Below are positions 2,106 through 63,464 of a DNA stretch of 64,000 bases, piece after piece. How positions within the stretch are numbered: the stretch's first letter is position 1; the number at the start of each line of letters is the position of its first letter. The notes under the pieces are model-generated. The model saw only the letters and a list, made by a program, of their open reading frames with translations. It ran no database searches and was not told the origin of the DNA. The stretch is from an uncultured Gammaproteobacteria bacterium (GTDB lineage: Bacteria; Patescibacteriota; Microgenomatia; Levybacterales; UBA12049): the NCBI GenBank assembly GCA_964571255.1, contig CAZNAA010000001.1, positions 136,134 through 200,133 of the forward strand, in the 5' to 3' direction. A program made the position numbers and the translations under genes.

Positions 2106-2121
2106 GGATCATACTATACCT

Positions 2122-2754
2122 ATGACTGAGGAATTATTACGCTATATCTCCCAAGCCAAAGCAAAAGGAGTAAAAGAGGAAGAAATTAAAAACAAGCTTG
2201 TAGCTCTAGGGTGGGAAGAAAAAATAGTAACAAATATTCTTAACGCATCAGAGAATGATCTTACTCCACCAGCTCCTCCATTAAATGGGAAAGCAATTTG
2301 GGATGCTTTTGAACATATCTTACTTTTTATCTCACTCATTTTAGTTTGTGTCTCATTTATGAACCTTTTCCATGCTTTTGTTGATGGAATTTTCCCTGCA
2401 GTCCAGACAGATCGATTTATTAGAAGCGATTCCTGGAACCATACCCGTCTTACGATTTTTGGAGCAATTTTAATTGTTTCTTTCCCTTTATTTATTGGTC
2501 TTTTTATCGATATCAAAAGACGCACTCTGAGACTTCCTTTTCTTGCAGAGCTTAAAGCAAGAAGAGTATTGACCTATCTCACTCTCATTATTGCCTTTAT
2601 TGTCATGATGTATAACGCCATTTATCTTGTGTATAACTTCTTAGATGGAAATGTAACTACGAACTTTTTGATTAACTTTGCCATAACGATAGGTATTTTT
2701 GGAACTGTATTCTTTTACTATTTGTCCCAAGTCAAATCAGATAGAGTGAAATAA
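2122..2754 (+). CDS. Hypothetical membrane protein (soluble N-terminal domain plus 4 TM helices)
   Basis: The ATG at 2122 avoids overlap with the upstream gene. Hydrophobic segments are present. No recognisable catalytic motif. Confidence 0.5.
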   Translation: MTEELLRYISQAKAKGVKEEEIKNKLVALGWEEKIVTNILNASENDLTPPAPPLNGKAIWDAFEHILLFISLILVCVSFMNLFHAFVDGIFPAVQTDRFIRSDSWNHTRLTIFGAILIVSFPLFIGLFIDIKRRTLRLPFLAELKARRVLTYLTLIIAFIVMMYNAIYLVYNFLDGNVTTNFLINFAITIGIFGTVFFYYLSQVKSDRVK

Positions 2755-2758
2755 ATCT

Positions 2759-3598: not shown

Positions 3599-3637
3599 TT
3601 TTTCCTTTCTCTCTACTTTTTGGTAAAATAAGCTACG

Positions 3638-4977: not shown

Positions 4978-5775
4978 TTATTGTGCACTTTCAGATGCAG
5001 TTGGAACTTCTCGTGATTCTCTTAATTTTTCTAATTCCTGTGCAGCTAGTTTTATACTGTCACGTGCTGCTTTTACTTTTTCTTGTGTAGATTTAAGATC
5101 TGTTTGTAACTGTTTTACAACAGTACTAAAGGAAGATTTTAGCCTGGCTTCGGTAGTAACTGTTGCTACATATTCTTTTCCAGCTTGGGTAGTAATTGCA
5201 GCCTCAGCACTAGCTAGAGCAGTCTGAGCATTTTGAATAGCGGTATCAAGAACAGTCGTATCTTGTCCTGCTGCTTCTGCTTTATCTGCAAGCTCAATAA
5301 TTTTTGTTAAAAAAGTGCTTAGTTTCTCTATAGATTCAGACATTCTGTCTGTTTGATTTTTATTGATGGCTGCTAAGCGTGTATCTAAATTTTCTGCAGC
5401 CATTTTTTTCTTTTCATCCTTTACTAGTTCTAATTTGTTTTTTAATTCTTCTCGTTTCTTATCCATTTCCTCTTTAATTTCTTCTCTTTTTTCCTCAATC
5501 ATTTCCTTCAATTCTTTTCTTCGTGTTTCTATATTTGTTTTTATCTCTTCTCTTTTTTCTAGTCGTTCTTTGATAATTGTAGGTCTGAGAAGCTTACTGG
5601 TTGGTTTCTCAATTGGTTTTAATTCTCGAAGTTCATCCTCATATACAGGATCAGTTGTGGTTGTATTAGTCTCTAGTGCAGAAACAGGAGAATAGGAGAG
5701 GAGAAAGACAACAAGAAGAGCAATACCGGTTTGTTTCATCTCTTTTAGAGTAGAATCATTTTTTTGTATTGTCAA
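4978..5775 (-). CDS. Secreted coiled-coil protein
   Basis: Signal peptide (MKQTGIALLVVFLLSYSPVSA) followed by a K/E-rich heptad-like repeat region. Confidence 0.45.
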   Translation of the reverse strand: MTIQKNDSTLKEMKQTGIALLVVFLLSYSPVSALETNTTTTDPVYEDELRELKPIEKPTSKLLRPTIIKERLEKREEIKTNIETRRKELKEMIEEKREEIKEEMDKKREELKNKLELVKDEKKKMAAENLDTRLAAINKNQTDRMSESIEKLSTFLTKIIELADKAEAAGQDTTVLDTAIQNAQTALASAEAAITTQAGKEYVATVTTEARLKSSFSTVVKQLQTDLKSTQEKVKAARDSIKLAAQELEKLRESREVPTASESAQ

Positions 5776-6200
5776 GTATAGGGGAGTATAATAGGAGTAT
5801 GTCTGATGCTAAAAACAAACCTCAGGATTATTGGAAAGAAAAATTAGATGAAGAGCAATTTCGAGTTCTCAGATGTAGTGCAACCGAGGCTCCGTTTAGT
5901 GGGAAATATTGGAATAATCACGAGACAGGAATGTATCAATGTGCTGCATGTGGACAAGAATTATTTTCATCAGATGCAAAGTTTGAATCCGGAACAGGCT
6001 GGCCAAGTTTTGATGATACCGTGAACAAATCCCACATTGAACTAAAAGAAGACGATGCGTATGGTATGAATAGAACTGAAGTGGTATGTAGTAACTGTGG
6101 ATCTCACCTAGGTCATTTATTTACTGATGGTCCAGCTCATACCACAGGACTTCGCTATTGTATTAATTCTGCCTCATTGGACTTTAAAAAGAAAGAATAA
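5769..6200 (+). CDS. msrB: Peptide-methionine (R)-S-oxide reductase MsrB
   Basis: Two CxxC zinc motifs (CAACGQ...CSNCG), the GWPSF motif, and the catalytic RYCINS Cys. An alternative start is at 5799. Confidence 0.85.
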   Translation: MSSIGEYNRSMSDAKNKPQDYWKEKLDEEQFRVLRCSATEAPFSGKYWNNHETGMYQCAACGQELFSSDAKFESGTGWPSFDDTVNKSHIELKEDDAYGMNRTEVVCSNCGSHLGHLFTDGPAHTTGLRYCINSASLDFKKKE

Positions 6201-6247
6201 TTTCCTCTACTCTACATTTTTCCAAGAAGTTGTTATAGTACAAATAT

Positions 6248-7123
6248 ATGGATATTTCTCAAGCGTCAACATATGCGCATCTTTCAGCTAAATGGGTTGA
6301 TAAGCATAGAAAAAGATCTGAAAGAGTTCTTAGAAAACATAAAGAGACTATTGATAAAGTTTCTCATCAGGCAAAAAAAACATTGGTAGGAAGTGGTGCA
6401 GGACTTCTTCTTTTGGCAACTCCTGCTCAACCTCTTACTTTCCCTGATCTTCCTAAAATAGAAAAAGAAGTGTTTGTCGAAAGGAAAAGTTTTTTTATCA
6501 ATGATTTGAGAAGTGTATTGCCTGAGCAGATGCGTCCTTTGACCTCTGAGGAAGAGGAAAAGATTGAAGGAATTTTAAAACAATATACAGGAGTAAGTGT
6601 AAAAACAGAATTGGAAGGGAAGAAATTGAATAGAACGTACGGGCTCATTGGAGCAGAGCAACATCTGGCTAGATACCCAGGAGATACTATGGCAAGTCAT
6701 TTTGATTCAGCAGAAGATTCACAAAAATACTACAGTTCAGGAATGGCACCAGGGCTTGGAGCGTATGGATACTTTGCGTATAGTAAATATGAGTTTACGC
6801 AGGAGGATAACCTACGGGAAAAATATTATATTGCTGTACAAACTTTTTTATCAGAAGACTTTTCTACTCGATTCAGAGAATATATGGAGTTTTATAAGTA
6901 TCGAAAAATGCTTTTGGTAAACCCTGATAATGGAAAATCTATGGTTGTTGATATTGCTGATTCTGGTCCTGCTGCTTGGACTGGAAAGCATCTAGGAGGT
7001 GCTCCTGAAGTAATGAAGTATCTGGAGCGAGTAGATGGGAAGCAAAGAGGAGCAGTACTGTATTTTTTTATCTCTCCAGAAAATGAAACAATTCCTTTAG
7101 GACCACTGGAGTTGGTAGAATAA
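6248..7123 (+). CDS. Hypothetical protein
   Basis: Long ORF with a hydrophobic N-proximal segment. No motif recognised. Confidence 0.45.
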   Translation: MDISQASTYAHLSAKWVDKHRKRSERVLRKHKETIDKVSHQAKKTLVGSGAGLLLLATPAQPLTFPDLPKIEKEVFVERKSFFINDLRSVLPEQMRPLTSEEEEKIEGILKQYTGVSVKTELEGKKLNRTYGLIGAEQHLARYPGDTMASHFDSAEDSQKYYSSGMAPGLGAYGYFAYSKYEFTQEDNLREKYYIAVQTFLSEDFSTRFREYMEFYKYRKMLLVNPDNGKSMVVDIADSGPAAWTGKHLGGAPEVMKYLERVDGKQRGAVLYFFISPENETIPLGPLELVE

Positions 7124-7127
7124 TTAT

Positions 7128-7460
7128 ATGAAAAGGAAACAAAAACATTTTTATAGTCACATTGTAGAAACGGATACACTTATTTTTGAGTTGAACAAGC
7201 TTGATTTATCACAAAGTGAAAAGCATCATTTGATTGAGTTGATTGATTCAAATCTTCACCATGCTATCTTAGAAGAAATTCTAACCCATTTAGATGATGA
7301 GGAAAAAATAACCTTTCTTGAGCATATTGCAGAGGGAAAATATAATGATATTTGGCAGCTTCTTGAGAAACGAATTGATGGAGTAGAGTCAAAAATTGAA
7401 ATGATTGCTGAGGAAGTAAAGAAAGAACTACAAGAAGATATTGATGAGATAAAGAAATAA
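7128..7460 (+). CDS. Hypothetical acidic protein
   Basis: ORF tightly packed after the upstream gene. Acidic and helical. Confidence 0.4.
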   Translation: MKRKQKHFYSHIVETDTLIFELNKLDLSQSEKHHLIELIDSNLHHAILEEILTHLDDEEKITFLEHIAEGKYNDIWQLLEKRIDGVESKIEMIAEEVKKELQEDIDEIKK

Positions 7461-21800: not shown

Positions 21801-23324
21801 TCACCATTGCTCTTCTAAAATAAGCTTGTCTTGACTATATTCCTCTAAATCCATTTCGTTTCCTAGTATTTTCACTTTATCTAGAGTAGTGGGAGAGCGA
21901 AAATATTGGAGAAGGATTTGATAGATATCCAAATCAAAAAAAATATCTTGACTAAACTCACGATTTTTTTCTTCTCCATTTTGTATTCGAATACTTCCTA
22001 GATACGACCATTTATCAAAGAGTAAGAATTCCTTCTCGCCAGTTGGATCCCACTCTTCACAAATAGCAATGGGACTTTTAAATGGCCACTCTTTAATCCG
22101 AGTATGAGCAAAAGCAGTAAGAAAGCGAAGATTATAAAGAATAGCATCTTCCTTTTTGATACAGGCTCCAGTACACGTTCCTAGTCGATAAGAAAAACAA
22201 CTTCCCTCTGTTTTCTCAAGGCCTAATCTTTTCTGGCAAAGAGAGTGTTTTTTTGCAAGTGTTGTGAGAAATTCTTTGGCTTGTTTTTTTGATCTAAAAA
22301 ATCCCAAGTAACTTGAAAGAGTTTTATGATCAATTTTAGAAATTGGAGAAAAAGTGACAGTGTGATAGCCATCCGTATCAACTTGTTGAATACAGGCAAT
22401 AAGTTCTTGCTTCACCCGAAGCTTTCGATTGTAGATAGGGAGAAGGGATTTAACATATTGAGATTCCAAAAATAACGCTCCTAACTCTCCAGCAGTTGGA
22501 AGTGCTTCAATATGTGCTACTTGTTGTGATATAGCAAGTTCTTTTTCCGATCTGATATCACTTGAAAAATGGGAAAGAACACGAGTATAAATATTCTTAC
22601 TTTTCCCAACATACAAGGGAGTTTGATTTTGGTCATAAAAGATATAGACTCCAGGACGTTTTGGAAGGTTTTTCACTCCTTCTTTTGAAAGAAGAGGAGG
22701 GAGAGTAGGGGATTTAAGAAGAGTAGTAATTGTTGAAACAAGTAATTCCATAGGGAGTATTTGTTGGAGTTTTTGGTAAAACTGATAGAGCATATGTGCA
22801 TCATCAAAAGCTCTATGTCTATTCTCACAAATAAGGTTGTATCGCTGAATAATGGCATCTAAGTTGTGACGAGGAAATTGAGGGAAAAGGATTCGGGAGA
22901 GTTTCACTGTACAAAAATGTTTCATAGAGAATGAGTAACCTAATCTTTCAAATTCATGGAGTAAAAAACTGTAATCAAATCGAACGTTATGAGCTACAAA
23001 GACACAATCAGAAAGAGATTCCAAAATAGTCTCTGAAACATCTTTAAATGAGGGAGCACCCTCAAGCATCGATGATTGTATCCCTGTTAATAACTCAATT
23101 TCTGGGGGGATATATCGGTCAGGATTAATGAGAGATTGGTAGGTATGAGTTATCTTATTATCTTCAACTCGGACAATACCTATTTCAATAACACGGTCCC
23201 GTTCAGCACGTCCTCCGGTTGTCTCTATATCAACGAAGGCTATTTTTGAGGGCAGCATAGTAGTAGGTAGTATAGGAATAAACAAGAGAAAAATCAAATA
23301 GAGATCCGTCTCTACTTGATTCAT
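21801..23324 (-). CDS. DnaQ-like DEDDh 3'-5' exonuclease fused to a GIY-YIG (UvrC/Cho-like) nuclease domain
   Basis: Exo I FVDIETTGG, Exo III H...D (HRAFDDAHMLYQ), and GIY-YIG GVYIFYDQNQTPLYVGKS. An SD (GAGGA) precedes the first ATG. Confidence 0.7.
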   Translation of the reverse strand: MNQVETDLYLIFLLFIPILPTTMLPSKIAFVDIETTGGRAERDRVIEIGIVRVEDNKITHTYQSLINPDRYIPPEIELLTGIQSSMLEGAPSFKDVSETILESLSDCVFVAHNVRFDYSFLLHEFERLGYSFSMKHFCTVKLSRILFPQFPRHNLDAIIQRYNLICENRHRAFDDAHMLYQFYQKLQQILPMELLVSTITTLLKSPTLPPLLSKEGVKNLPKRPGVYIFYDQNQTPLYVGKSKNIYTRVLSHFSSDIRSEKELAISQQVAHIEALPTAGELGALFLESQYVKSLLPIYNRKLRVKQELIACIQQVDTDGYHTVTFSPISKIDHKTLSSYLGFFRSKKQAKEFLTTLAKKHSLCQKRLGLEKTEGSCFSYRLGTCTGACIKKEDAILYNLRFLTAFAHTRIKEWPFKSPIAICEEWDPTGEKEFLLFDKWSYLGSIRIQNGEEKNREFSQDIFFDLDIYQILLQYFRSPTTLDKVKILGNEMDLEEYSQDKLILEEQW

Positions 23325-32616: not shown

Positions 32617-33942
32617 ATGGCAAGAGTTCTCCCACATAATGATGAAGCAGAGCAAAGTGTGCTAGGTGCAATCATGATTGATAAGGAAGCAATCACGGTT
32701 GTTTCTGGAATTTTGCGTCCTGAGCATTTTTATAACGATACGAATCTTCTTATTTATGATGTTATGCTCACACTTTTTGACGAGAGAAAGCCCATTGACG
32801 TTTTAACTATTTCTTCTCAACTCAAAAAACACAGAGGAGGAGATAAAATCCCCAGTGCATACATTACTGATCTAGTTAGTGCTGTCCCAACAGCCTCAAA
32901 TGTAGAATATTATGCCCAAATTGTCAAAGACGTTGCCCTCAAACGTTCACTTATCAGAATTAGTGGGGAAATTACGGATATGTCTTTTGAGGAAGATAAT
33001 GAAACTAAAGACATCCTGGATAAAGCAGAGTCCTCAATTTTTGCTGTGGCTCAAGGAAATATTATTCGGGATTTTGTTCTCCTTAGAGAAACCCTTTCTG
33101 ATACTTTTGACAGAATTGATGAGTTGCATCAAAAAGGAGATGGGCTACGAGGGGTTCGAACAGGATTTAAAGATTTAGATAATACGCTATCAGGAATGCA
33201 AAAGGCAAACCTTCTCATCCTTGCAGCGCGTCCTGGAACGGGTAAAACAGCCATTGTGTTGAATATGGCCCAATACGCTGCTCAACACGAGAAAAAGCCT
33301 GTGGCTATCTTTTCTCTTGAAATGAGTAAAGAAGAACTCGTAGATCGTTTGGTCGTTTCTCAATCAGAAGTAGATGCATGGAAAATAAAAACAGGAAGAC
33401 TGAATGAGGAAGATTGGGATAAAGTCTCCTCTGCCATGGGACAGCTTGGAGATATTCCCCTGTATATTGATGACACCCCAGGCATTACGATGGCTGAGAT
33501 GAGAAGTAAAGCCAGAAGACTTCATTTAGAACATGGACTCGGTCTTATCGTAGTAGATTACTTGCAACTGGTTAATCCTGGAAAGCAATATGAAAGTCGA
33601 ACTGTTGAAGTCTCCGCAATCTCGCAAGGCTTAAAAAATCTTGCCCGTGAGTTAAATGTTCCGGTTTTAGCTTGTTCTCAACTTTCTCGTGCAGTGGAGC
33701 AACGAGGAGAGAAGAGACCACAGCTGGCTGATTTGAGAGAATCCGGAGCCATTGAACAGGATGCAGACGTTGTTATGTTTATCTATAGACCAGATTCTGA
33801 AGTAACTGGAAATACTATTCCCACGAAGCTGCTTATCTCAAAACATAGAAATGGTGCAACAGGAGAGATTGATCTTCTCTTTAGAGGAGACAGAATGAAA
33901 TTCTTTAATATTGAAAAAGGAATTGAGGAAGAAGTACACTAA
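32617..33942 (+). CDS. dnaB: Replicative DNA helicase DnaB
   Basis: N-terminus EAEQSVLGAIM, Walker A GTGKTA, Walker B, and RecA-like C-terminal domain. No intein. Confidence 0.9.
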   Translation: MARVLPHNDEAEQSVLGAIMIDKEAITVVSGILRPEHFYNDTNLLIYDVMLTLFDERKPIDVLTISSQLKKHRGGDKIPSAYITDLVSAVPTASNVEYYAQIVKDVALKRSLIRISGEITDMSFEEDNETKDILDKAESSIFAVAQGNIIRDFVLLRETLSDTFDRIDELHQKGDGLRGVRTGFKDLDNTLSGMQKANLLILAARPGTGKTAIVLNMAQYAAQHEKKPVAIFSLEMSKEELVDRLVVSQSEVDAWKIKTGRLNEEDWDKVSSAMGQLGDIPLYIDDTPGITMAEMRSKARRLHLEHGLGLIVVDYLQLVNPGKQYESRTVEVSAISQGLKNLARELNVPVLACSQLSRAVEQRGEKRPQLADLRESGAIEQDADVVMFIYRPDSEVTGNTIPTKLLISKHRNGATGEIDLLFRGDRMKFFNIEKGIEEEVH

Positions 33943-35179: not shown

Positions 35180-35915
35180 GTTTGAGCAGGCCTGAACATT
35201 GCTGTCAGACCTGCTCGAGATGGTAAGTGAGAGTGGGGCTCACTTTCCATCAGGAATGAACTTACTTGGTTAGATAGTTGCGATACGAACCTTCAACGCT
35301 GAAACCTAATCGCTTGGCGACACCATAGGCTGTCCAGAAGCGTTTCTTCGCCTCTAACACGGCCATCCGGATTTCAGCCATTTTCTCACGCCGTGTCATG
35401 ACTTTCCTGGCGCTGACTTCGTTGTCAAACGCCGTTTGCATTGCCCGCGCTTTCATGGCCAGATAAGAATTGACTCGGAGCTGGTCGTTTTGGCGATCAC
35501 TTGTTGGTTTCCAACCGTACTGCTCGAGGAAGATTCCCAGATCTCGCTGCCTCTTCAGCCACCGCCATCCTCGGAAGGGGAGACAGACAGCCTCGAGAAA
35601 GACGAGCAGAGGGAATCCCACGCTCCGTTCCCACCAGAGAATAGCGGTTTCCAGCCTGAAAAAGCTGAAAAACCAGAAACTCCCGAGGGCGAGTGTAACG
35701 TAGGCAGCGATGCTCACAATGTAAAGGTTCATTCCGATTCTCCTGCGGGTTCTTCCCGCCAATTGCCAGTTCTGCTGGCTTCGGATTGTTCTCACGGAGC
35801 TTCCGTGAGCGAGTGCGATCCGCGCACTCTTCCTTGAGAGGTCCCACTCCCTCAAAAAGTAGGTAAAGTGTAGCAAAAAGAGGATGAAAAGTCAAGTACT
35901 ATAGGTTTACTAATT
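35180..35915. other. Compositionally foreign high-GC segment (about 50-55% GC versus about 36% in flanks) abutting the 3' end of tRNA-Leu
   Basis: Visible GC shift. Multiple overlapping six-frame ORFs are typical of GC-rich DNA. A perfect 8-bp hairpin CTCACGGA-AGC-TCCGTGAG lies at about 35795-35813. Confidence 0.6.
35262..35732 (-). CDS. Hypothetical protein with an N-terminal TM helix, encoded in the high-GC segment
   Basis: This is the longest frame in the segment. The likely start is MNLYIVSIAAYVTLALGSFWFF. The in-frame upstream extension reaches 35876. Confidence 0.3.
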   Translation of the reverse strand: MNLYIVSIAAYVTLALGSFWFFSFFRLETAILWWERSVGFPLLVFLEAVCLPFRGWRWLKRQRDLGIFLEQYGWKPTSDRQNDQLRVNSYLAMKARAMQTAFDNEVSARKVMTRREKMAEIRMAVLEAKKRFWTAYGVAKRLGFSVEGSYRNYLTK

Positions 35916-35923
35916 GGTATTAG

Positions 35924-36006
35924 TACCGGGGGAGGGACTCGAACCCTCAAGGCCTTGCGACCAGTAGTTTTTGAGACTACCGCGTATACCATTCCGCCAC
36001 CTCGGC
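35924..36006 (-). tRNA. tRNA-Leu (anticodon CAA), type II, CCA not encoded
   Basis: Acceptor GCCGAGG, D-loop with GG, anticodon stem GUAGU/ACUAC with loop CUCAAAA, variable arm GGUC-GCAA-GGCC, T-arm GAGGG-UUCGAGU-CCCUC, discriminator A73. The acceptor 3' strand CCCCGGU leaves an A5-C68 mismatch. Confidence 0.8.
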
Positions 36007-43904: not shown

Positions 43905-45325
43905 TCTTAATAGAATCCTATAGTATACTATCTGTTTTTTTTTCTTTCCATAAGAACATAATTTAGATTATTGATAAAAAGATATTGTTGTGAGTGTAGC
44001 GTTCACATACGAGAAAAGAGAAGAAGGAGAGTGATGAATGGGAAAATAAATAGGAAAGTGGGAGAGTAGAAGATGAGTAGGTCCTGTAGTACTGATACAG
44101 ATTGATATAGTCAGAAATAATCCTATAAGACATAAATGATATAGTTTGATACATAATGTGGATAACTATTTTTAGCTTCAATTCGTGCCTAAAAAAGATG
44201 GTTAGGGCGTATTCTTCTCGGAGGAGGACTGCCAGGTGTCGCTTTGTTCTCTTCGGGAATAGTAGCTCACAGATTTAAAAAATACGAAATGTGTTCATTT
44301 TTTTAGGGAAAAGAGATCAGTTTTCACGAACCTAAACAGGCTCAAGTTCTTAGTAGAGCAGGGTATAGGAAAAGCTCCACTTTTCACAGAATCTAGAAGT
44401 AGTATGAAGCCTCTCCAGAGGAGAGTGCTACAGATGCCTAGTTATAAACAATTAGTTTCTACTCAAAGAGTGTAGATAACACGCATATAAAGAAAGATTT
44501 AGAGCGTATTCTCTCTTAGTAGTAATTGTTTCTTCTTTAAAGAAGAAAATGTGTTGTTTTGTCAGGACGGGGCTTATATATGCTTATGTCGTATAATAAT
44601 ACTTTTACGACATGACGCATGGTTGGTTCTGGGGAGGACCTAGGTTTGGGACAGATTTGATTTTATTCATTTTTCTTCTTGTATAGCCTTGATTTTCTCA
44701 AATGCTATTCTGCTCCATTCGTGCTCCGAATACTCGATTTCTTGCTTTCAATAACTATGAGCTTTAAATTCTTTTTCACACAGCCTCCTTCCCTGTATTC
44801 AGGCATAATCTGTGAAAACAGTGTTCTCCCTGGTACCTTTTCCCATAGGGAGGATCTTTTTACCCTAAAAAGATTGTTTTTAGTTGCCTGACAAAAAACA
44901 GAGGTCCAAGTATTCATCTTGCCCTCATTCAACGCGTCCTAGGGCATTTGGTGACGTTGTAGGATCAGGCTCAGGGACGTGATTCAGGGTGGTTGTTCCA
45001 AATAGAAGAGAAATTAGATCCAAGACCCATTTCTTCTGGATCTATTGGAGTTAACCCATTAGTAAGTACTTGATTATATCTAGCTACTGCGTGTTCGAAG
45101 ACGTGTTTTGAATCTGCATTAGTCATAACTCTCTGTAGCTTTTTAATGATTAATAGACATTCGATCTTTATATAGGAGGTTCAGTTGGAAGGCCAATAGC
45201 AACTATATGTTTTTTGGTAAGTGTTCCTGAAGTTATTTCCGCATATGGTAATCTACAAAGAGATTAAGAGTTGTGAGTCATGAAGAGAATTATATAAGCT
45301 TGACTGGGGGAGTTACAAGCTGTCT

Positions 45326-52243: not shown

Positions 52244-53089
52244 ATGCAACTAAATCGTCGTGCGTTTGTCATTATTCTTATAGTCTTACTCTTTGTTTCC
52301 TTCCCTCTGTTACTCTTTGTTCTCAGACAAAATCAAGATGTCAGACAGCGGGCTGATACGTCTACTTTGGCTGCTTCTTTTGGAGATCAGGTAGTTACTA
52401 AAGGAGAGCTAGAAGACTATGTTAGACAAGCTATCCCTCTCCAAGCTGATGAAGTTCTCTCTAGTCCTGATGGAAGAAAATATTTTTTGAATTTACTGCT
52501 TGAGAAGAAATTGGTAGAGAGTGAGGCCCAAAAGAAAAATATAACGGTAACAAGTAGTACTCTTTCCGAGGAAAAAGAAGAGCTATCTACGAAAAAAATG
52601 TTTAGTAACGAAAAAATTCAAAGCTTACTATCCAACCAGACAGCTCTTTCTGAGTATGTTCTCAAAAAACAAGTGATGGAAGATGTAGAGGCTTGGAAAG
52701 AAGTAGACATGGTTTCCGTTTATATTAGTCCAGAAGTAAAAGAGTTTGAAGCCAATAAAAGACAAGCACAAACTATTCTTGAAGAGATGAGAAATCTCGT
52801 TTCCTCAAGTGTTACTCTTTCTCAAGCCTTTGAAAGACTCAAATCCAAATATGCTCGTCAAATCTCGCAGATGAGACTTCAGGAAGGAATAAGAGTGACA
52901 AAAGGAAATACCATGGATGCTCAGTTAAAAGCTCCGCTTTTTCAAGTAAAAAAAGGAGAAGTCTCCCCGGTTATTATCTCAACTGGAGGAGCAATGATGA
53001 TTGTGAAAGTGCTTGATGAGAATGTTACGTCTTTTGATTCATATGACAGTTGGCTTACTCAGCAAATGAAAGGAGTCACATACTACTAA
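52244..53089 (+). CDS. Membrane-anchored parvulin-like PPIase (PrsA/SurA-like foldase)
   Basis: TM anchor followed by the C-terminal PpiC-like motif GEVSPVIISTGGAMMIVKVLDE. Confidence 0.5.
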   Translation: MQLNRRAFVIILIVLLFVSFPLLLFVLRQNQDVRQRADTSTLAASFGDQVVTKGELEDYVRQAIPLQADEVLSSPDGRKYFLNLLLEKKLVESEAQKKNITVTSSTLSEEKEELSTKKMFSNEKIQSLLSNQTALSEYVLKKQVMEDVEAWKEVDMVSVYISPEVKEFEANKRQAQTILEEMRNLVSSSVTLSQAFERLKSKYARQISQMRLQEGIRVTKGNTMDAQLKAPLFQVKKGEVSPVIISTGGAMMIVKVLDENVTSFDSYDSWLTQQMKGVTYY

Positions 53090-54048
53090 TGGAGCGATTG
53101 TTTGTTAAATCATTCTTACTTCTTTGTCTGTTCTTTATTGGATCATATATTTATGCTTATTCTACTCCGCAATATTTTTCAAAAGCTTGTGCAGCACAAT
53201 TTAACTGTGCTGGAGCGCCTGCTTGTCCTAATCCTAACTATGGTGGTCAATATGGCTCTGCTTGTATCGACTCAGTAAACTTAAGTGGAAAGATTCGAGT
53301 TCGTGGGTTAGGAAGTGCTGGAGAGGTATCTGTTGCAGCTAATGTGCGGGGATTTGAATTAGATAATAACTATCAATGTAGTGACGTTATTTGTTTGCTG
53401 AGAGAAGCTCAATCCAGTGCCATACCAGTCTATCCAGGCAACTTTTCAGGAAATCAAGCGAATGGAGTTACATTTGATTCAAGTGATGGATCCTACCTTG
53501 TTCCTTGGACAGTAAATACCATAGGTTGTTCGGGAGATCCAAATTGTAACGACTGGTTCTCTTTAACTGCAGTTGTCAAAAATCAAGGGAACTATACGTG
53601 TACTCGGGCAGATGATCAGACATTGATTCTTAAAGGCTTAAATGGGCAAAGTCCACCTCTTGGTGAAGTAAGTGTCAATTGTGTCCCTAAAAACGTTCCA
53701 ACTCCTGTTTGTGTTACTTATTGTGAAGGATCTCAAAAATGCGATGCTACTCACTACAAAACTATTGAGAAGTGTTCCACTGAAGGAAACCCAGCTGATC
53801 CTAATGTTCCAGGAACATTTAGAGAACTTCCTTGTGGAACTCAAGCTCAATATCATGATGGACTAACTAATACGTGCCAAGCTCTCCCAACACCTTCTCC
53901 TACCAAGACGCCAACGCCTTCGCCAACAAAAACACCAACCCCCACCCCTACGAAAACACCAACTCCAACTCCAACTCCATCGCCATCAGCGTGTCCTGTA
54001 CCGTCAGTTGTACCAAATGTCAGAATAGATTGTCCAACGTGTCAATAG
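53089..54048 (+). CDS. Secreted Cys-rich protein with C-terminal PT-linker repeat
   Basis: Signal peptide [23 protein letters not shown], more than 20 Cys, and [11 protein letters not shown] repeats. Confidence 0.45.
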
Positions 54049-54049
54049 T

Positions 54050-54898
54050 ATGTACTTACAAGTTAAATTACGATCATTAATAATTGGCCTATTTATCTTT
54101 GCTTTGCTGTTGTTAGGAGGATACTTGCTTATTACACAAACGCAGCAGAATCAAGATGTCAGGCAGCGTGCTGCAGTTCCTGCGTGTTCTACTGTTCAAG
54201 CTGTATGTAAATGGGATAGTGTGCCAGGTGCTGCTTCATACATTGTTAAAGTAACCGATATTTCAACTAACCAGACAGTGGTGACGCAAAGTGTTACTAC
54301 AACTTCTATTCCTTTTAATTTTGTCGTTGGGAGAGCCTATCGATGTGAAGTGAGTGCTGTGAATACTTGTGGGACAGGCTCACAAGCTCAAGGTGTGAGT
54401 ACCTGTGAAGCAAATGTTACACCAACGCCTACACCTTCGCCAACTGCTACTCCAACACCTACTATCACTCCAACTATTACAGTTACTCCAACGGCTACGC
54501 CCACGGTTACTCCAACAAAAACACCAACCCCTTCCCCTACGAAAACCCCAACTCCAACAGCTACCCCTAGTCCTACAAATACACCTAGTCCAACTCCAAC
54601 AGCTACGCCTCGACCAACCAATACACCAACTCCAACTCCAACAGCTACACCTATTCCAACAAATACGCCCATCCCTACAGCAACACCAGTTCCACCAACG
54701 AATACTCCAACTCCTACGCAAACTATTATTGCTCAGGTTCCAACCAGCACACCTACTCCTGTTCCTTTGATTCCCACTCCAACACTTGCACCAATTGTAA
54801 CAATTGCTCCTACGGGAAACACCACACTTCCAACACTGTTGGGAGTTGGAGGAGTAGTTCTTGGTATTTTGGGCGCAGCAGTCTTTTTCCTCCTCTAA
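54050..54898 (+). CDS. Cell-surface protein with a FN3-like domain, long Thr/Pro repeat and C-terminal TM anchor
   Basis: N-terminal TM plus QNQDVRQRA motif, about 100 aa of (T/P) repeats, and C-terminal [20 protein letters not shown]. Confidence 0.45.
54415..54730 (+). repeat. Tandem PT-linker codon repeats (ACNCC(A/T) units). A roughly 45-bp near-identical copy lies at 53925-53975.
   Basis: ccaacaaaaacaccaacccc..cccctacgaaaac.ccaactccaac is shared between the two genes. It spawns spurious antisense ORFs. Confidence 0.7.
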
Positions 54899-54997: not shown

Positions 54998-57900
54998 TTA
55001 TTCAGCGCCTTCTGTTTTTTCAAGACAGGTGGCTGCTGAGACTTTATCAGAGGTATCAGAAAATCTCATGAGAATAACCCCCTGCGTGTCACGTCCGAGG
55101 TGTGGAATGGTTTTGAGACTGAGTCGTACTACTTGCCCATTTTTAGAGGTAATAATGACTTCCTCAGCGTCTGGTGGCACAATTTGGCCTGCAACTACTC
55201 CTCCTGTCTTATCTGTTACTTTTGCTACCTTTACTCCAAGTCCTCCTCTTCCTTGCAGAGGAAATTGATTAACTGTCGTGATTTTTCCGAGTCCATTTTC
55301 CATAATGACAAAAAGAGATTGATTGGCATCATTTTTAATAAGATCCATTCCTACTACTCGATCAGTTGAGGATGTTTTGATTCCCCGTACTCCCATTGTT
55401 GCTCTTCCCATAGGGCGAACTTCTGCTTCGTTAAACTTAATCGCTTTGCCTTCTTTTGTAACTATGAGAACGTGGTTATCTCCGCTTGAGAGATGACTCC
55501 AGACAAGTTCGTCTTTCTCCTCAAGCTTAATAGCAATCATGCCGTTTTTTCGAATATTTTCAAATTCAGATAAAGCACTCTTTTTAACTGTTCCGTTTCT
55601 AGTTGTTAAGAAAATAAAGCCTTTCGCAGTTTTCTTATAGACAATAAATGACTCGACTTGCTCTCCTGCTTCAATATTTAAAAGATTAACCATTGCTGTT
55701 CCCTTAGCAACACGAGAACTTTCAGCGATTTCATACGCTTTGGTTTGATATGCTTTGCCTTTATTGGTGAAGAAAAGAATATTGTCATGAGTCTCTGCAT
55801 ATCTGATGTGTGAGATAGTATCTTCATCCTTCATCTTCATCCCTGATACTCCCTTGCCTCCTCTGTGTTGAACGTGGAATGAGTTAAGGCTTTGGCGCTT
55901 GATATATCCAGTTTCTGTCATACTAATAACCGTTGGTTCGTTTGGAATTAAGTCTTCCTCTGAGAATTCATCCACTTTATTTTTGAATACTTTTGTACGT
56001 CGAGGGTCTGCATACTTAGTCTTGATATGAAGAAGTTCATCTTTAATAACGCTTAAAATCTTTTCAGGATGTCCAAGTAAGTCTTCTAAATAGGCAATCG
56101 TTTCTTGAACGAGTTTTAACTCATCTTCAATTTTTTGTCTCTCAAGTGCAGCAAGACGACGGAGTTGCATGTCCAGAATAGCCACTGATTGAATCTCAGA
56201 AAGTTTAAATCTTTCCATCAAATTTTTCTTTGCTTCTTCTTGATCTTTTGATTCTCGAATAGTTTTAATTACTTCATCAATATGATCAACAGCAATTTTA
56301 AGTCCTTCTAAAATATGCAGTCGGGCTTTGGCTTGTCTTAGTTCAAATTCAGAACGGCGGCGAATTACGATATATCGGTGTTTAAGGTATTCTTCTAAGA
56401 TCAGTTTGAGATTAACTGTTTGTGGAGTTCCATCAACAAGTGCGACCATATTGACAGGAAAGCTGGTTTGGAGAGAGGTCAGCTTATATAGATTATTGAG
56501 TACCTTTTTTGGAACTGCGTCTCGTTTGAGTTCAACATATACCCGAAGTCCCCGTCTATCTGACTCGTCTCGTAAATCTGAAATTCCTTCAATCTTTTTC
56601 TCTTTTACTAAATCAGCAATTTTTGCAACCAAAAGGGCTTTATTCACTTGGTATGGAAGCTCAGTAATGATGATGGCTGATTTGCCCTGCCCTACTTCCT
56701 CAACTTCTGCTTTTCCACGAATCAGTACCTTTCCGCGCCCGGTGTAGTATGCCTGCTTAATTTCATTAATATCAAAAATAGTTCCAGCAGTTGGGAAATC
56801 TGGTCCCTGAACGTATACTAATAAGTCATCAATAGACACCTCATTGGTAACAGTTACATCTGACCCCTTCATACTTCCTCCATCAGACATCTCACTGGTG
56901 TGAGAAAGAGTTGATTTACTAATTAAATGGATAATTGCATCCACTACCTCAGTTAAATTGTGAGGAGGAATTTTGGTTGCCATACCAACAGCAATTCCTT
57001 CAGATCCCATGAGAAGAAGGTTAGGCAAACGAGCTGGGAGATATTGGGGTTCTTTTTCACTTCCATCAAAATTTGGATTAAAAGAAACTGTCTCTTTATC
57101 CAAATCAGCTAGCATCTCAGCTGTGATGGCTGCCATCTTTGCTTCGGTATTATGATTAATAAATCCATTTGCAACGAATGAATGGCAGCTACTATCAACC
57201 TTTATTGAGTAGACAGTCTTCTCATCCCCTTTTGTTATTGATTCTATTTTGTCAAAGATATAGTGATTTTTAAGAAGAGTGGTAAAAAGTTCAATAGTAT
57301 CAGGTTGGAGTTGAGAAAGAATAGATGATTCTATTGCTTGATGATGTTGAATCATACCTCCATAACGATCGAAATTGTGTTTATATACAAAGGACCTTAC
57401 GTTGTCGTAAGAAAGTGTTTTATCAAGAATTTGATAGATATAGTCTTTAAGGAAAGGGACAAAGTCAAAAAGACTTTGATCTTTCTGCATGGTACTAATG
57501 ACCTGTTTTAATGCTGTTATTTTTCTTTGTGAAATAAATCCAATAGTTTCACTGAACAGGATATAATTTTTTCTTCCTCTCAGATATAGCTTATGTATAT
57601 TTCGATATTTATCAAAACGTTTGGTTGCTAAGATTCCAAAGCGTAACAGAAGAATTTGAATTTCATCAATCAATTCTTCACTCATGGAGACACATGAGAG
57701 CTCAATCATTTTTCGACTACTGCTTATTGACCCATCTCCTTCAAAGTAGGCTTTAAGAAATGTTGCTACAACAGGTTTTGGGGATTGTAAAATAAAAGGA
57801 GGAATTCTTCTTAGAGCAGATTTTTTTGATAAAAGACCAATATTTCTCAGAAATGCAATGACATATAACGAATGAATTTCAATACGATAATATGTCTTTT

Positions 57901-58855
57901 TCCCATATGAGGAAGGTGCTTTCTTAAAAAGGTGTAGCCGTGTATCTGGAAAAACCTGTTTCCACTCTGAAATGAATTGCGTGATCCATTCCTCATCACT
58001 ATTACAAAATTCTAGTTTTTCTTTTTGTGATAGTGTTCCTTCAGCAGTTAAACTTCCAAGAATGAATGCAAGGCTAGTAGTAAGGGTTTTTGGAAGTTGC
58101 TTGGTTTGTGTTCGAGAATGAGGGTTTTTGGGTATAAATTTCTTCAGGGAGACTTCATTCTCTGGCCAAAGTGTATCTGTAGTACGATCTAATACTACAA
58201 TATCTGTTTTCTTTATATCTTGAAGCAATTTCCACTCAAACTGTGGTTTTCCTGTTTCTTCATGTTTAGTCCATATAAGAACAGGGTGATTATATGATCC
58301 TTCAATATGAAACCCATGATGTGTTGTAATACGGATTGTTGGATGAGTACCGCTATTGAACCATTTCGAAGCTGTATGTATTTCCGCATTTAGTGATAAC
58401 ACTTTGATATTTGTAGATTCATCCTTTGAGTGTGTAAGTTTTTGAATTTGTTCTAATCCATTATTGGTTATAACAAGAGTGTCTCCAGTAATACAGTATC
58501 GCATGGCAGCTGGTGGATCTCCGTCAACTGAGCCAAAGTTTCCTTGACCATGAATAAGAGGATACCGCATGGAAAAGTCTTGAGCCATACGAACAAGGGA
58601 ATCATAAATTGGAACGTCTCCGTGAGGATGGTATTTTCCCATGACTTCTCCAATAATCTTCGCACTTTTTACAAACTTTGCACTGTGGTACAAGTTCATC
58701 TCATGCATAGCAAAAAGAATACGACGATGAACTGGCTTAAGTCCATCTCTGATATCAGGAAGTGCACGTTCCACGATGACAGACATCGCATAGTTAAGAT
58801 ACGACTTCTTCATCTCTTGCGTAATATTTGTTTGTTGTAATCTACCGATATCCAT
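54998..58855 (-). CDS. gyrA: DNA gyrase subunit A, interrupted by an in-frame intein
   Basis: 1285 aa. The N-terminus is classic GyrA up to AAMRY, then CITGDTLV..., resuming as [13 protein letters not shown]. The extein totals 836 aa. Confidence 0.9.
57149..58495 (-). other. GyrA intein (449 aa) with LAGLIDADG homing-endonuclease domain
   Basis: Starts Cys121 (codon aca at 58493-58495) and ends ...NGFINHN with +1 Thr. Two LAGLIDADG-like motifs: [12 protein letters not shown] and [12 protein letters not shown]. Confidence 0.8.
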
Positions 58856-58920: not shown

Positions 58921-59241
58921 TTATATATTAGCCATTCTTTTTCTTTTTGCTTCTTCAAGATCATTTCCTGCTTGTAAGGTTCTTCGTAATATTGAAAGTC
59001 TCTCACGATCAACTACGTTAAGTGCTAGTCCTAATCCTACTGCTTGAATATCAAGGCTTCTTCTTTCTGCTTCAGCATAACTGCCTTGCCAATTAGCAAT
59101 ATCGTTATGCGTACCTCTTAAAGTTTTATCCCATCCCACAGTAGTTAACGCTTCGTGAACCGCAGGTAAACGCCCTAAGAATTCCTCATCAATATAAGGC
59201 TGTTCTTCATCTCTTCCATCTTCTTTTAATGCTTCTGCCAT
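58921..59241 (-). CDS. Hypothetical small protein
   Basis: 106-aa ORF between gyrA and ppa. Confidence 0.35.
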   Translation of the reverse strand: MAEALKEDGRDEEQPYIDEEFLGRLPAVHEALTTVGWDKTLRGTHNDIANWQGSYAEAERRSLDIQAVGLGLALNVVDRERLSILRRTLQAGNDLEEAKRKRMANI

Positions 59242-59851: not shown

Positions 59852-60361
59852 TCAAAAGACGAAGTTCATCTTTTTTTCTGGGTCTTCTTGATAACAGGGA
59901 GTCCCTTCAATAACAGTATATCCTGGAGGATACTCATCAATATCAGAAACTCCAAAATGTGTTTGATAATCATTGACAGGCGTGTCTTTTACTTGAAACA
60001 TCCCTATTAATCTTTGTGCCATTGCTACTCTGTTTCCTTCAGAAATACCACCTACTCTTACACTTAGACTAAAAAATCCTGCTTCTCTTAAATCTTTCTC
60101 ATTCCCTAGTATAATGGTTCCATCAGTATTTAAACCAGCAACTGGCTCAACTGAGTCTGTACGGTCTAATTCTTCATTTGCTTCTATAATTCGATATAAA
60201 GTTATCTCTACTGGGCCTACTCCAGCTATGTTTCTCCATCCACTATGAATTTCTGAAAAATTCTCATTTTCCGTAATTTCTAAAGGTGTATCTTCATCAA
60301 AAAAAGAAACTTCTCGAGACGGTTCTTGTAATTTATCTTGTACTGGTTCTTGGTCACTCAT
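59852..60361 (-). CDS. Hypothetical acidic protein
   Basis: 169-aa ORF immediately downstream of gyrB. Confidence 0.4.
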   Translation of the reverse strand: MSDQEPVQDKLQEPSREVSFFDEDTPLEITENENFSEIHSGWRNIAGVGPVEITLYRIIEANEELDRTDSVEPVAGLNTDGTIILGNEKDLREAGFFSLSVRVGGISEGNRVAMAQRLIGMFQVKDTPVNDYQTHFGVSDIDEYPPGYTVIEGTPCYQEDPEKKMNFVF

Positions 60362-60363
60362 AT

Positions 60364-62325
<1,962 letters not shown>

Positions 62326-62375
62326 CTAATTATACACAGGGTGTCAAGTAAGAGCAAGCGACCTAGTTGGAGGAG

Positions 62376-63464
62376 CTAAAACTCTTCAATAATTTGATGA
62401 TAGTAGTGTACGCATGTGTCAATTTTCTCTATAAGACAATATTCATTTGCTTTATGAATAGTCTCTCTTTCTCCTGGCCCTAGAACTACTGCTGGAATAT
62501 TTTTTTCTGTAAAGAAACACATATCATTTGACCAGCTTGAGGCAACGATATTCGCATTTGTTACCTGTTTTGTTATTTCTACAATTTTTTCTTTTCCTTC
62601 TGTATATCCATACGAGACGGGAGTATATGTATATTCAATCTTGGCAGGTGTTACGATTGTCTGGACTTCTTTTTTTACCCGGCTATGAAGAGGAGGTGTT
62701 GTTCTGACGTCAAATGTTGCTTTGCACGTATCAGGAAATTTATTCGGACTAGTACTGTCTCCTGCTGAGATTGACGTGAGTAATCCAATAGTTGGATCTC
62801 CAAGTACAGGATCTGAGTACTTTTCTTTCCAGGTTCTTTCTAGCCTTTTTAACTTATTTACTATTTCGATCATTTCCAAAACAGCATGGGTTTTTATCTT
62901 AGACGGTGCAGATCCATGACCACTTTGTCCTTTAGTTGTAATAGTGAGAAAGATATTCCCTTTATGAGCTATCTCAATTTCGCTAAGTCCAGTTGGTTCA
63001 CCTAGAATTCCAGCAACTTCTTTGTACTGTGTCCTTTCGTATTTTTCAAACCACTCCAAAACTTCTTTTGTTCCTGATCCATCTATTTCTTCACGAGCAA
63101 CAAAGGTTAAGAATACATCACAAGAAGGCTTTCTTATTGATAGAGTTTTGGCTAGATATAAAAGAGTCGCAATGGTTGCTTTCTCATCGCTTGCTCCAAT
63201 CCCATACATTTTGCCATTTTTCACTACTCCTTCAAGAGGAGGTGTTTTCCAACTTGTTCTATCTCCAATTGCAACCGTGTCAACATGAGCGTTAAAAATA
63301 AGCGCTTTATTCTGACTTTCTCCTTTAATCTTCACCAGAAGATTGTCTCCGATAGTAATAGGCGTGAATGAAAGATTTTGTAAGTACTTTTTTATGTACG
63401 CTACAATTTCTTCCTCACTACCGGAGATTGAGTTGATCCCAATTAGGCTACGCAGAATATCCAT
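62376..63464 (-). CDS. M20-family metallopeptidase (ArgE/DapE-like deacylase)
   Basis: Metal ligands AHVDTV...GASDEK...EE and a dimerisation-domain insert. Confidence 0.75.
   Translation of the reverse strand: MDILRSLIGINSISGSEEEIVAYIKKYLQNLSFTPITIGDNLLVKIKGESQNKALIFNAHVDTVAIGDRTSWKTPPLEGVVKNGKMYGIGASDEKATIATLLYLAKTLSIRKPSCDVFLTFVAREEIDGSGTKEVLEWFEKYERTQYKEVAGILGEPTGLSEIEIAHKGNIFLTITTKGQSGHGSAPSKIKTHAVLEMIEIVNKLKRLERTWKEKYSDPVLGDPTIGLLTSISAGDSTSPNKFPDTCKATFDVRTTPPLHSRVKKEVQTIVTPAKIEYTYTPVSYGYTEGKEKIVEITKQVTNANIVASSWSNDMCFFTEKNIPAVVLGPGERETIHKANEYCLIEKIDTCVHYYHQIIEEF

Follow-up and report, generated by a model that had tools for sequence, protein, structure and literature searches.

The gyrA locus of the window (the whole 64,000-nucleotide stretch of DNA analysed here) raises the question of how a gene for a gyrase subunit comes to carry 449 extra codons directly beside its catalytic tyrosine, and whether its product can still become a working gyrase. 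The initial annotation read the insertion as a full-size LAGLIDADG intein inserted where the GyrA inteins of mycobacteria sit. We examined this reading through the gene and its junctions, the splicing and endonuclease domains, the relatives that lack the insertion, and the wider family of related inteins.

The interrupted gyrA gene and its insertion site

The gyrA precursor is one uninterrupted open reading frame of 1285 amino acids, in which the N-extein, the intein, and the C-extein are joined in frame. Its features are as follows (all on the reverse strand).

54998..58855, reverse strand: gyrA precursor ORF (DNA_topoisoIV, E = 7e-151; six GyrA_C blades; Intein_splicing; LAGLIDADG_3; PRK05560 equivalog)
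58496..58855, reverse strand: N-extein, GyrA residues 1-120, ending ..GDPPAAMRY (gapless alignment to the gyrA of sibling contig L163)
57149..58495, reverse strand: intein, 449 aa, precursor residues 121-569, Cys1 to Asn449 (domain matches, alignment, model, and absence in siblings)
58181..58495, reverse strand: N-terminal HINT splicing half, intein residues 1-105 (TIGR01445 intein_Nterm, E = 4e-10)
57491..58090, reverse strand: predicted LAGLIDADG (dodecapeptide) homing-endonuclease domain, intein residues about 136-335 (LAGLIDADG_3, E = 1.7e-18)
58037..58072, reverse strand: LAGLIDADG motif 1, ..LTAE152-G, acidic residue Glu152 (sequence motif)
57731..57760, reverse strand: LAGLIDADG motif 2, ..FEGD254-G, acidic residue Asp254 (sequence motif)
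57266..57490, reverse strand: helical stretch joining the endonuclease domain to the C-terminal splicing half, intein residues 336-410 (AF2 helices 349-410)
57149..57265, reverse strand: C-terminal HINT splicing half, intein residues 411-449 (Mxe GyrA intein alignment)
54998..57148, reverse strand: C-extein, mature GyrA residues 121-836, stop codon included (colinear with sibling gyrA)

The precursor matches the PRK05560 gyrA equivalog (NF004043) with 1094.6 bits against a cutoff of 902, and TIGR01063 with 1057.5 against a cutoff of 877; Pfam places six PF03989 blades in the C-terminal beta-pinwheel. Judged by these equivalog scores, the catalytic tyrosine motif, and the pinwheel, the host gene is DNA gyrase subunit A. 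The intein starts with CITGDTLV right after ..GDPPAAMRY and ends with ..NGFINHN right before Thr+1; that is, the insertion point lies between the catalytic tyrosine (Tyr120, codon 58496..58498) and the next threonine (first codon of the C-extein, 57146..57148), AAMRY/TEA. Excision of the 449 residues leaves an 836-aa GyrA with a contiguous AAMRYTEAKM motif, and the boundaries (57149 and 58495) and length first proposed for the insertion proved exact.

The neighbouring genes are undisturbed: gyrB (60364..62319, 651 aa; 1.5 kb upstream of gyrA) and dnaB (32617..33942, 441 aa) are both intein-free by length and domain content, as the initial annotation had held. A tblastn search with the intein found no second intein or endonuclease copy in the window, and no second gyrA or parC was seen within it. 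Two small extra ORFs that adjoin gyrA have no match in Pfam, NCBIfam, or PHROGs. Elsewhere in the window there are a GC-rich 0.6-kb stretch (35260..35900; fold z-score -1.9) and an ORF-poor 1.4-kb stretch (43905..45325), which yielded no Rfam or ARAGORN match beyond tRNA-Leu.

The primers used to delete the M. leprae gyrA intein encode ..PAAMRY and TEARL.., which flank its insertion site (PMC6658535). Since these primers and our alignments agree, the site is, on the evidence of sequence, that of the M. leprae and other mycobacterial GyrA inteins (GyrA-a). Among solved structures, the best sequence match is the Mxe GyrA intein (phmmer against 1am2, E = 3e-17, both splicing halves), with intein residues 2-106 aligned to Mxe residues 3-110 and residues 397-449 to Mxe residues 147-199. 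The mycobacterial inteins (Mxe, 1am2/4oz6; M. leprae, full-length) share the junction ..AAMRY/C...HN/TEA.. and the Cys1 and Thr+1 chemistry with the window intein, and their splicing halves are homologous to it, but the identity is only about 30-40%, their hosts are actinobacterial whereas the host here is Patescibacteria-like, and the Mxe GyrA intein has lost the endonuclease domain that the window intein retains complete.

The NCBIfam GyrA_w_intein model aligns to the precursor as one colinear stretch (precursor residues 5-1277), and the intein alone scores 206 bits on positions 117-537 of the NF038098 profile (E = 7e-61). The precursor as a whole, with 1164 bits, falls below the curated cutoff of 1850 for NF038098 (“intein-containing DNA gyrase subunit A”, an exception-level model), and is therefore not closely related to the sequences from which that model was built. 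By these alignments and scores, it is homologous to and colinear with NF038098, yet falls outside the narrow set of proteins named by the model.

Splicing residues, endonuclease domain, and predicted fold

Every residue expected of a class-1 intein is present: Cys1, S-x-x-H, the block F Asp and His, the terminal His-Asn, and Thr+1. Block A (CITGDTL, 58475..58495) carries the Cys1 nucleophile; block B (GSYNHP, 58283..58300) carries Ser67 and His70 (S67-Y-N-H70-P); and blocks F and G supply Asp434, His438, His448, and Asn449, followed by Thr+1, in a region that aligns to VDTADHAFITNGFVSHN of Mxe GyrA. Blocks A, B, F, and G can thus all be placed from the Mxe alignment and from residues conserved in the family. 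In a comparison of 62 family members (1891 pairs), Cys1, His70, Pro71, His438, His448, and Asn449 are invariant in all 62, as is a second cysteine, Cys437, in block F. The first position of block B is Ser in 32 members and Thr in 30, and Ser67 is best read as a conservative variant of the canonical T-x-x-H threonine. Pfam also detects Intein_splicing in the precursor (E = 1.4e-13); with this match and that to LAGLIDADG_3, both far beyond chance, the identification of a full-size LAGLIDADG intein from Cys1, the terminal His-Asn with Thr+1, and two LAGLIDADG motifs stands.

If established intein chemistry applies, the 1285-aa precursor would first be translated, and Cys121 (intein Cys1) would undergo an N-S acyl shift aided by the block B His70; the hydroxyl of Thr570 (+1) would then attack the thioester to give a branched intermediate; Asn569 (intein Asn449) would cyclise with the help of His448 and release the intein; and an O-N shift would form the Tyr120-Thr peptide bond, giving the 836-aa GyrA with its AAMRYTEAKM active-site motif. 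Because the insertion abuts the catalytic tyrosine and this is the only gyrA seen in the window, gyrase activity should depend on splicing. The intein is real and probably functional, with splicing predicted from its residues.

The position next to the catalytic tyrosine also means that the unspliced precursor must be inactive, which could suit an intein co-opted as a conditional switch, with redox state, temperature, or metals acting through Cys1 and Cys437 to control splicing, gyrase, and supercoiling. The invariance of Cys437 in 62 of 62 members fits such a role, and other inteins of replication and repair proteins have been proposed to splice conditionally (PMC4760082; PMC11377839). We consider this reading very improbable: the closest relatives of the host gene lack the intein (see below), so gyrase control in this group does not depend on it. 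Moreover, selfish inteins as a rule occupy conserved active sites.

The predicted endonuclease domain keeps both acidic residues, Glu152 and Asp254, each of which is retained in 60 of 62 family members, and the glycines that follow them (Gly153 and Gly255) are present in 62 of 62. Mean identity across the 62 members is 49.3% and 59.6% for the two splicing halves and 52.5% for the endonuclease domain; within the intein, conservation is lowest in the helical region (residues 336-410), whose mean identity to family members is 31.8%. An AF2 model of the intein (pLDDT 88.8, pTM 0.91; pLDDT 63-87 in residues 349-410 of the helical region) has a HINT fold as a predicted structure, and the order of its secondary-structure elements fits the pseudo-dimeric alpha-beta-beta-alpha-beta-beta-alpha endonuclease fold. 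Foldseek aligns the model with the TliVMA intein (7qss; E = 1e-23, TM 0.70/0.72), with the Mxe GyrA intein (1am2; target-normalised TM 0.79), and also with PI-TkoII, PI-PfuI, PI-SceI, I-DmoI, and I-Tsp061I. The best structural matches, the archaeal inteins TliVMA/PhoVMA (7qss/7qst), PI-TkoII (2cw7), and PI-PfuI (1dq3), and PI-SceI of yeast (E from 1e-23 to 1e-10), share a HINT domain split by a double LAGLIDADG endonuclease, but they sit in other proteins (V-ATPase, DNA polymerase, ribonucleotide reductase) and at other sites, and their sequence identity to the window intein is only 10-22%.

Empty sites in relatives and the proposed gain of the intein

The initial annotation proposed looking for an empty gyrA-a site in sibling genomes, and such sites are indeed found. 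Two sibling contigs, L163 and L164, are syntenic with the window (84-94% nucleotide identity over aligned blocks; 84-89% outside the gyrA N-extein, and 93.9%, gapless, within the N-extein against L163). Their gyrA genes (2511 nt) are exactly colinear with the spliced extein (2511 nt) and lack exactly the 1347 bp of the intein, with the alignment breaking at window positions 58497/57150; the empty site of L163 reads GATCCACCAGCTGCCATGCGATAT/ACCGAAGCAAAAATGGCAGCT. The sibling GyrA has 836 residues and is 98.7% identical, with 11 amino-acid differences. Beyond the siblings, the best 120 extein homologues (at least 72% identity) are 805-869 aa long and contain no intein domains in any of them, and all 80 of the 80 GTDB-representative loci are uninterrupted at the insertion site.

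Compared with the sibling gene, the exteins have a dN of 0.0125 and a dS of 0.587, and are under strong purifying selection. This bears on the suggestion that the insertion is a HINT/LAGLIDADG domain that does not splice, so that gyrA would be a pseudogene or its product would stay interrupted for good. Among related metagenomic gyrA genes, one (L081) does have an in-frame stop elsewhere in the gene; here, however, the reading frame is intact over 1285 codons, every residue that the four splicing steps need is in place and does not vary across the family, and the window offers no second gyrA or parC to take over the function, so that with the selection on the exteins we regard a non-splicing insertion as extremely improbable.

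From this distribution we infer a lineage-specific gain after the split from the sequenced sibling. It is very probable, in our assessment, that the insertion is a genuine class-1 intein at GyrA-a with an embedded double-motif LAGLIDADG endonuclease, predicted to splice and to home, and gained after the sibling split. The donor appears to be unsampled, given that no related intein comes closer than about 56% identity. When viral contigs were scanned with the intein, the scan found no intein relative that would point to a phage vector, and the PHROG matches of the intein are to generic intein and endonuclease families only.

Relative to the sibling, five substitutions lie within 90 nt upstream of the junction and 10 within 90 nt downstream (mean about 9 per 90 nt); they form no cluster that would mark a co-conversion tract beside the junction. 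The N-extein has a dS of 0.37 and the following 360 nt one of 0.81, both being short segments. Comparison of GC and codon usage with the host, also proposed at the outset, gave a divided answer: the total GC of the intein (33.3%) is indeed the lowest of 60 coding units (host mean 38.1%), but its GC3 (22.9%) is within the host range (11 of 59 host ORFs are lower) and its synonymous-codon distance (0.113) is smaller than the host mean (0.129). The low GC is attributable to amino-acid composition, and since GC3 and synonymous codons are host-like, composition gives no evidence on origin; a foreign-composition reading of the intein was accordingly rejected as a signal. With host-like composition, no co-conversion tract, and no close donor, the gain could be old.

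The wider family and the question of active homing

Relatives of the intein are encoded in at least 499 metagenomic stretches. We kept 80 metagenomic loci, 78 of which include the upstream extein, and in all 78 the intein lies at the same gyrA junction. These environmental GyrA inteins (433-447 aa) have the same junction and architecture, and 36-56% identity including the endonuclease domain; nine of the loci differ from the window gyrA in having a second intein 12 residues upstream. Their hosts, according to database records and metagenomic contigs, include CPR/Patescibacteria, Omnitrophota, Acidobacteriota, Chloroflexota, and DPANN-like archaea, and one related intein, 53% identical, is on an archaeal contig. 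As the closest related intein among the matches listed is only about 56% identical, and the C-exteins of the environmental loci are only 34-55% identical to the window GyrA, the window copy is without a sampled close relative.

The description of the intein as an unusual invasion is too strong: the nearest relatives of the host do lack it, but the family is abundant and already annotated in Patescibacteria and Saccharimonadales records. The literature that we searched did not describe the environmental GyrA inteins that extend from CPR/Patescibacteria to DPANN-like archaea; GyrA inteins were given there only for Actinobacteria, Aquificae, Chloroflexi, Proteobacteria, and some archaea, and no paper was found that treats inteins together with Patescibacteria.

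The family also bears on whether foreign intein DNA was stitched into gyrA by an assembly misjoin. An exact-sequence look-up of the precursor in a large gene collection returned no record, which could fit an assembly chimera, but the insert is in frame to the base, its removal gives a gyrA colinear with the sibling gene (2511 nt each), the same junction is used in the 78 metagenomic loci and in M. leprae, and the synonymous codons are host-like. Chance misassembly would not reproduce all of these, and we give a chimera hardly any credence.

Within the family, the intein identity exceeds the C-extein identity by more than 10 points in 180 of 1891 pairs (for example, 73% versus 48%). This discordance between intein and host similarity, like the related intein on an archaeal contig, suggests horizontal movement within the family; together with the patchy distribution and the empty sites, it is indirect evidence for homing by site-specific cleavage of intein-free alleles. 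Where descent is clearly vertical, divergence is faster in the intein than in the extein. Overall, intein and extein distances correlate (r = 0.67), and vertical inheritance within clades is therefore common.

If the endonuclease is active, the freed 449-aa intein would be predicted to cut an intein-free gyrA across the junction ..GCTGCCATGCGATAT/ACCGAAGCAAA.., and repair from the intein-containing copy would insert the intein (homing). The endonuclease could nonetheless have lost its activity despite its intact motifs: the intein may be a relic late in the homing cycle that still splices, is inherited vertically, and is kept because imprecise loss destroys gyrase. The fully host-like codon usage, the missing co-conversion tract, the distance to the nearest intein (about 56% identity), the overall correlation of intein and extein distances, and an intein-free sibling at a dS of about 0.6 (so that the gain need not be recent) are all compatible with such a relic. 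The domain itself speaks against it, being full length, with both acidic residues and the following glycines intact, as conserved as the splicing halves across the 62 members, and predicted to fold with high confidence; decaying endonuclease domains usually pick up deletions, as in the Mxe GyrA mini-intein. An inactive endonuclease is a serious possibility, although we lean against it. We offer equally tentatively the proposal that an actively homing intein entered the lineage after the sibling split, as part of one GyrA-a pool that passes across the domain boundary between ultra-small organisms of groundwater, namely CPR bacteria and DPANN-type archaea.

For annotation, the gene should be called as gyrA with an intein, its mature product having 836 aa, rather than a novel 1285-aa fusion or a pseudogene. 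The kind of selfish element and its site are both well known, and the understanding of inteins is unchanged; here the element occurs in a lineage whose nearest relatives are without it, and it shows that a homing intein of full size is retained in a genome that has been reduced. The mycobacterial GyrA-a family forms part of a much larger pool in the environment, one that takes in several bacterial phyla and at least one archaeal contig. Wide use is made of the Mxe GyrA intein, and the window intein is a divergent relative of it, from a low-GC, presumably mesophilic host and with a matched natural target site. Window and sibling provide one filled and one empty site, a clean pair whose exteins are almost the same (98.7% identity at the amino-acid level), and if homing is indeed active, the window and L163 would be a natural filled/empty pair for intein homing in uncultivated episymbionts.

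Interrupted gyrA gene and its intein

The window carries an intein-containing gyrA gene, whose coordinates and sequence quotations were exact in the initial annotation:

54998..58855, reverse strand: gyrA precursor, a single unbroken ORF, 1285 aa
57149..58495, reverse strand: intein, 449 aa, precursor residues 121-569, between ..GDPPAAMRY and [13 protein letters not shown].. (sub-feature coordinates verified)
60364..62319: gyrB, 651 aa, just upstream of gyrA
32617..33942: dnaB, 441 aa

Excision of the 449 aa leaves an 836-aa protein in which the AAMRYTEAKM motif is contiguous. Pfam assigns DNA_topoisoIV (E 7e-151) and six GyrA C-terminal blades to the exteins, which score above the NCBIfam gyrA equivalog cutoffs (1094.6 vs 902; 1057.5 vs 877). 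As had been proposed, gyrB and dnaB are intein-free, with normal lengths and no intein domains; no second gyrA, parC, or further intein copy was found within the window.

The insertion matches Intein_splicing (E 1.4e-13) and LAGLIDADG_3 (E 1.7e-18) in Pfam, and the intein N-terminal region in NCBIfam; the whole precursor aligns colinearly, in one stretch, to the NCBIfam model "intein-containing DNA gyrase subunit A", at a score (1164 bits) below the narrow cutoff of that model (1850 bits). Of all sequences with a solved structure, the GyrA intein of Mycobacterium xenopi (Mxe) matches best (E 3e-17), and the alignment spans both splicing halves: NHP (block B) and VD..H.F..NGF..HN (blocks F and G). 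In alignments of full-length relatives (16, later 62), Cys1, His70 and Pro71 (block B), Cys437, His438, His448, and Asn449 are invariant, which together with the Mxe alignment bears out the splicing blocks; at the block-B "Thr" position the window intein has Ser, and the family is split half Ser, half Thr.

Glu152 and Asp254, the acidic ends of the two LAGLIDADG motifs, are retained in 60 of 62 sequences. Identity to the window copy averages 52.5% for the endonuclease domain and 49.3% and 59.6% for the splicing halves; the endonuclease domain is thus conserved to the same degree as the splicing halves, which speaks for selection on the endonuclease throughout the family. The AlphaFold2 model computed from the intein alignment is confident (pLDDT 88.8, pTM 0.91), and among PDB entries it is closest to inteins that carry an endonuclease: TliVMA (7qss; E 1e-23, TM 0.70/0.72), PI-TkoII, PI-PfuI, and PI-SceI. 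The model also matches the mini-intein of Mxe GyrA (target-normalised TM 0.79) and LAGLIDADG enzymes that are free-standing, e.g., I-DmoI.

Following established intein chemistry, the translated precursor would undergo an N-S acyl shift at Cys121, helped by the block-B His; trans-esterification by Thr570 and cyclisation of Asn569, helped by the penultimate His, would follow, and an O-N shift would yield mature GyrA joined at Tyr120-Thr121. The freed intein is predicted to cut an empty gyrA site and to be copied in through recombinational repair. For this homing part only, a realistic alternative is that the intein is resident and its endonuclease dead.

Empty site in relatives and probable gain of the intein

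Sibling genomes with an empty site were found. The top extein homologue (P0043; 836 aa, 99% identical) lies on contigs L163 (95 kb) and L164, from a sample different from that of the window. L163 is syntenic with the window through gyrB, ppa, gyrA, two hypothetical genes, a SurA-like gene, an ABC transporter, folD and onward, with 84-94% nucleotide identity over aligned blocks (84-89% excluding the gyrA N-extein). Its alignment to the window is interrupted exactly at 58497 and 57150 (window positions), which means that L163 lacks precisely the intein's 1347 bases. The gyrA coding sequence is 2511 nt in both the window (spliced) and the sibling, with differences at 252 nucleotides and 11 amino acids (dN 0.0125, dS 0.587). 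The insertion abuts the catalytic tyrosine, so an unspliced precursor cannot be an active gyrase subunit, and the strong purifying selection on the exteins (dN/dS ~0.02) implies, as judged from sequence, that splicing works. A non-splicing insertion, or a gyrA pseudogene, runs counter to the intact residues and to this constraint.

The next extein relatives (87%, 80%, and 78% identity) likewise have no intein. A scan of the spliced extein against GTDB, one genome per species, placed it closest (67-77% identity) to MAGs mostly labelled Patescibacteria or CPR groups, and the ..A-x-RY|TE.. site was uninterrupted in all 80 GTDB loci retrieved. The best 120 extein homologues (at least 72% identity) in a collection of 5.8 billion proteins are 805-869 aa long, none with intein domains. 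A regulatory role through conditional splicing is conceivable but unlikely, and the nearest relatives manage without the intein. The most parsimonious reading of these sequences is that the window's lineage gained the intein once, after its separation from the L163 lineage, since the alternative needs repeated precise losses.

The total GC of the intein (33.3%) is lower than that of every one of 59 host ORFs because of its first-position and amino-acid composition; its GC3 (22.9%) and synonymous codon usage are inside the host range. Substitutions between the window and sibling gyrA do not cluster beside the intein junction, and no related intein was found on the viral contigs searched. Nothing in composition, substitution pattern, or the viral-contig search supports a recent or foreign origin. 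A chimera made by the assembler is very unlikely, because the frame is exact, the colinearity with the sibling is exact, the junction is common to relatives, and the codons are host-like.

Two further ORFs, at 59852..60361 (reverse strand, 169 aa, between gyrB and ppa) and 58921..59241 (reverse strand, 106 aa, between ppa and gyrA), have no counterpart on the syntenic sibling contigs L163 and L165, in which gyrB, ppa, and gyrA are nearly adjacent at these places; neither ORF has a match in Pfam, NCBIfam, or PHROG. With the intein, this makes three lineage-specific insertions in ~4 kb. Sibling synteny stops just upstream of gyrB, where the window has an M20-family peptidase (62320..63464) and L163 has holB-like and MgsA-like genes (5521..7458).

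Elsewhere in the window, 53050..54898 (forward strand) holds adjacent ORFs of 332 and 282 aa, probably secreted or surface proteins, with long Pro/Thr-rich low-complexity tails (PTPTPSPT repeats), strong local GC skew, and no NCBIfam family. A 1.4-kb region (43905..45325) has no credible ORF and no Rfam match at E up to 0.1; within it, ~44555..45001 is still 84% identical to L163. A ~0.6-kb stretch of 52% GC (35260..35900; the window is 38% GC), directly adjoining tRNA-Leu(CAA) at 35923..36006, has long ORFs overlapping on both strands, no Rfam or tmRNA matches, and a fold z-score of only -1.9; it looks more like structured RNA or foreign DNA than a gene. In addition, a 507-aa protein (21801..23324, reverse strand) combines RNase_T/DnaQ-type exonuclease and GIY-YIG nuclease domains.

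Related inteins and signs of horizontal movement

Among the matches listed, the nearest inteins are 52-56% identical to that of the window. A pattern scan of metagenome contigs gave at least 499 confirmed relatives. An upstream extein is present in 78 of the 80 metagenomic loci kept, and all 78 carry the intein in gyrA with abutting extein matches; in the other two, the contig starts within the intein. Named sources include Omnitrophota, Acidobacteria, Ktedonobacteraceae, Saccharimonadales, "Patescibacteria group", and "Nanoarchaeota". L082, a 223-kb archaeal contig (L7Ae, S28e, S6e, aIF2-gamma), has a GyrA-a intein with 53% identity to that of the window; gene calling splits the gyrA of L082 (6001..9805) into ORFs of 622 and 587 aa, suggesting that this assembly contains a frameshift. 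The contig of the closest related intein among the matches listed (L083) carries a bacterial S1 protein.

Intein-bearing relatives are distant from the window in their exteins, with 59-76% (N-extein) and 34-55% (C-extein) identity; for intein-free relatives the values are ~80-85% and ~70%. Intein and C-extein distances are correlated over 62 complete loci (r = 0.67, Mantel p ~0.001), from which inheritance within clades is, on these distances, partly vertical. Among pairs of clearly vertical descent, inteins have diverged more rapidly than exteins (extein 93%, intein 80%). In 180 of 1891 pairs, intein identity is more than 10 points above extein identity (e.g., 73% vs 48%), the footprint that horizontal homing would be expected to leave. 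The window and its nearest intein neighbour among the matches listed (intein 55%, C-extein 50% identical) point the same way.

Nine loci (L100, L104, L112, L118, L129, L131, L133, L137, and L143) have two inteins per gyrA, 12 extein residues apart, with precursors of up to 1490-1790 aa; of the two, the extra intein is the upstream one (..GQGNFG|C...HN|S(x)DGD..), and the other is the AAMRY|C intein. Contig L084, which has one of the closest related GyrA inteins, also carries a gyrB (1782..4181, 799 aa) with a ~150-aa mini-intein in the Toprim region that has no counterpart in the window's gyrB. In L081, an in-frame TAA (6168..6170) at the conserved Ser of ..DLRDES.. cuts an intein-containing gyrA (P0004) into two called genes; sequencing error, polymorphism, or pseudogene formation may lie behind it.

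Place among known GyrA inteins

GyrA inteins have long been known in mycobacteria. In M. leprae, the gyrA intein was deleted with primers that encode ..PAAMRY before it and TEARL.. after it (PMC6658535); this junction is identical to the window's, so the assignment to the gyrA-a site holds. A 2015 survey counted 50 GyrA inteins in Actinobacteria, Aquificae, Chloroflexi, and Proteobacteria (PMC4760082), and a 2022 study set aside 23 archaeal GyrA sequences with an intein (PMC9348778). Our literature search found no paper joining inteins with Patescibacteria; intein-containing GyrA proteins from Patescibacteria are already in database records. Both the site and the architecture are known, and the find is ordinary for specialists; the invasion is not "unusual", as the initial annotation had worded it, and the rest of that interpretation is supported. 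What is added is a clean pair of filled and empty sites, and evidence for a wide distribution of this GyrA-a intein family among environmental bacteria, with at least one archaeal contig carrying it too.
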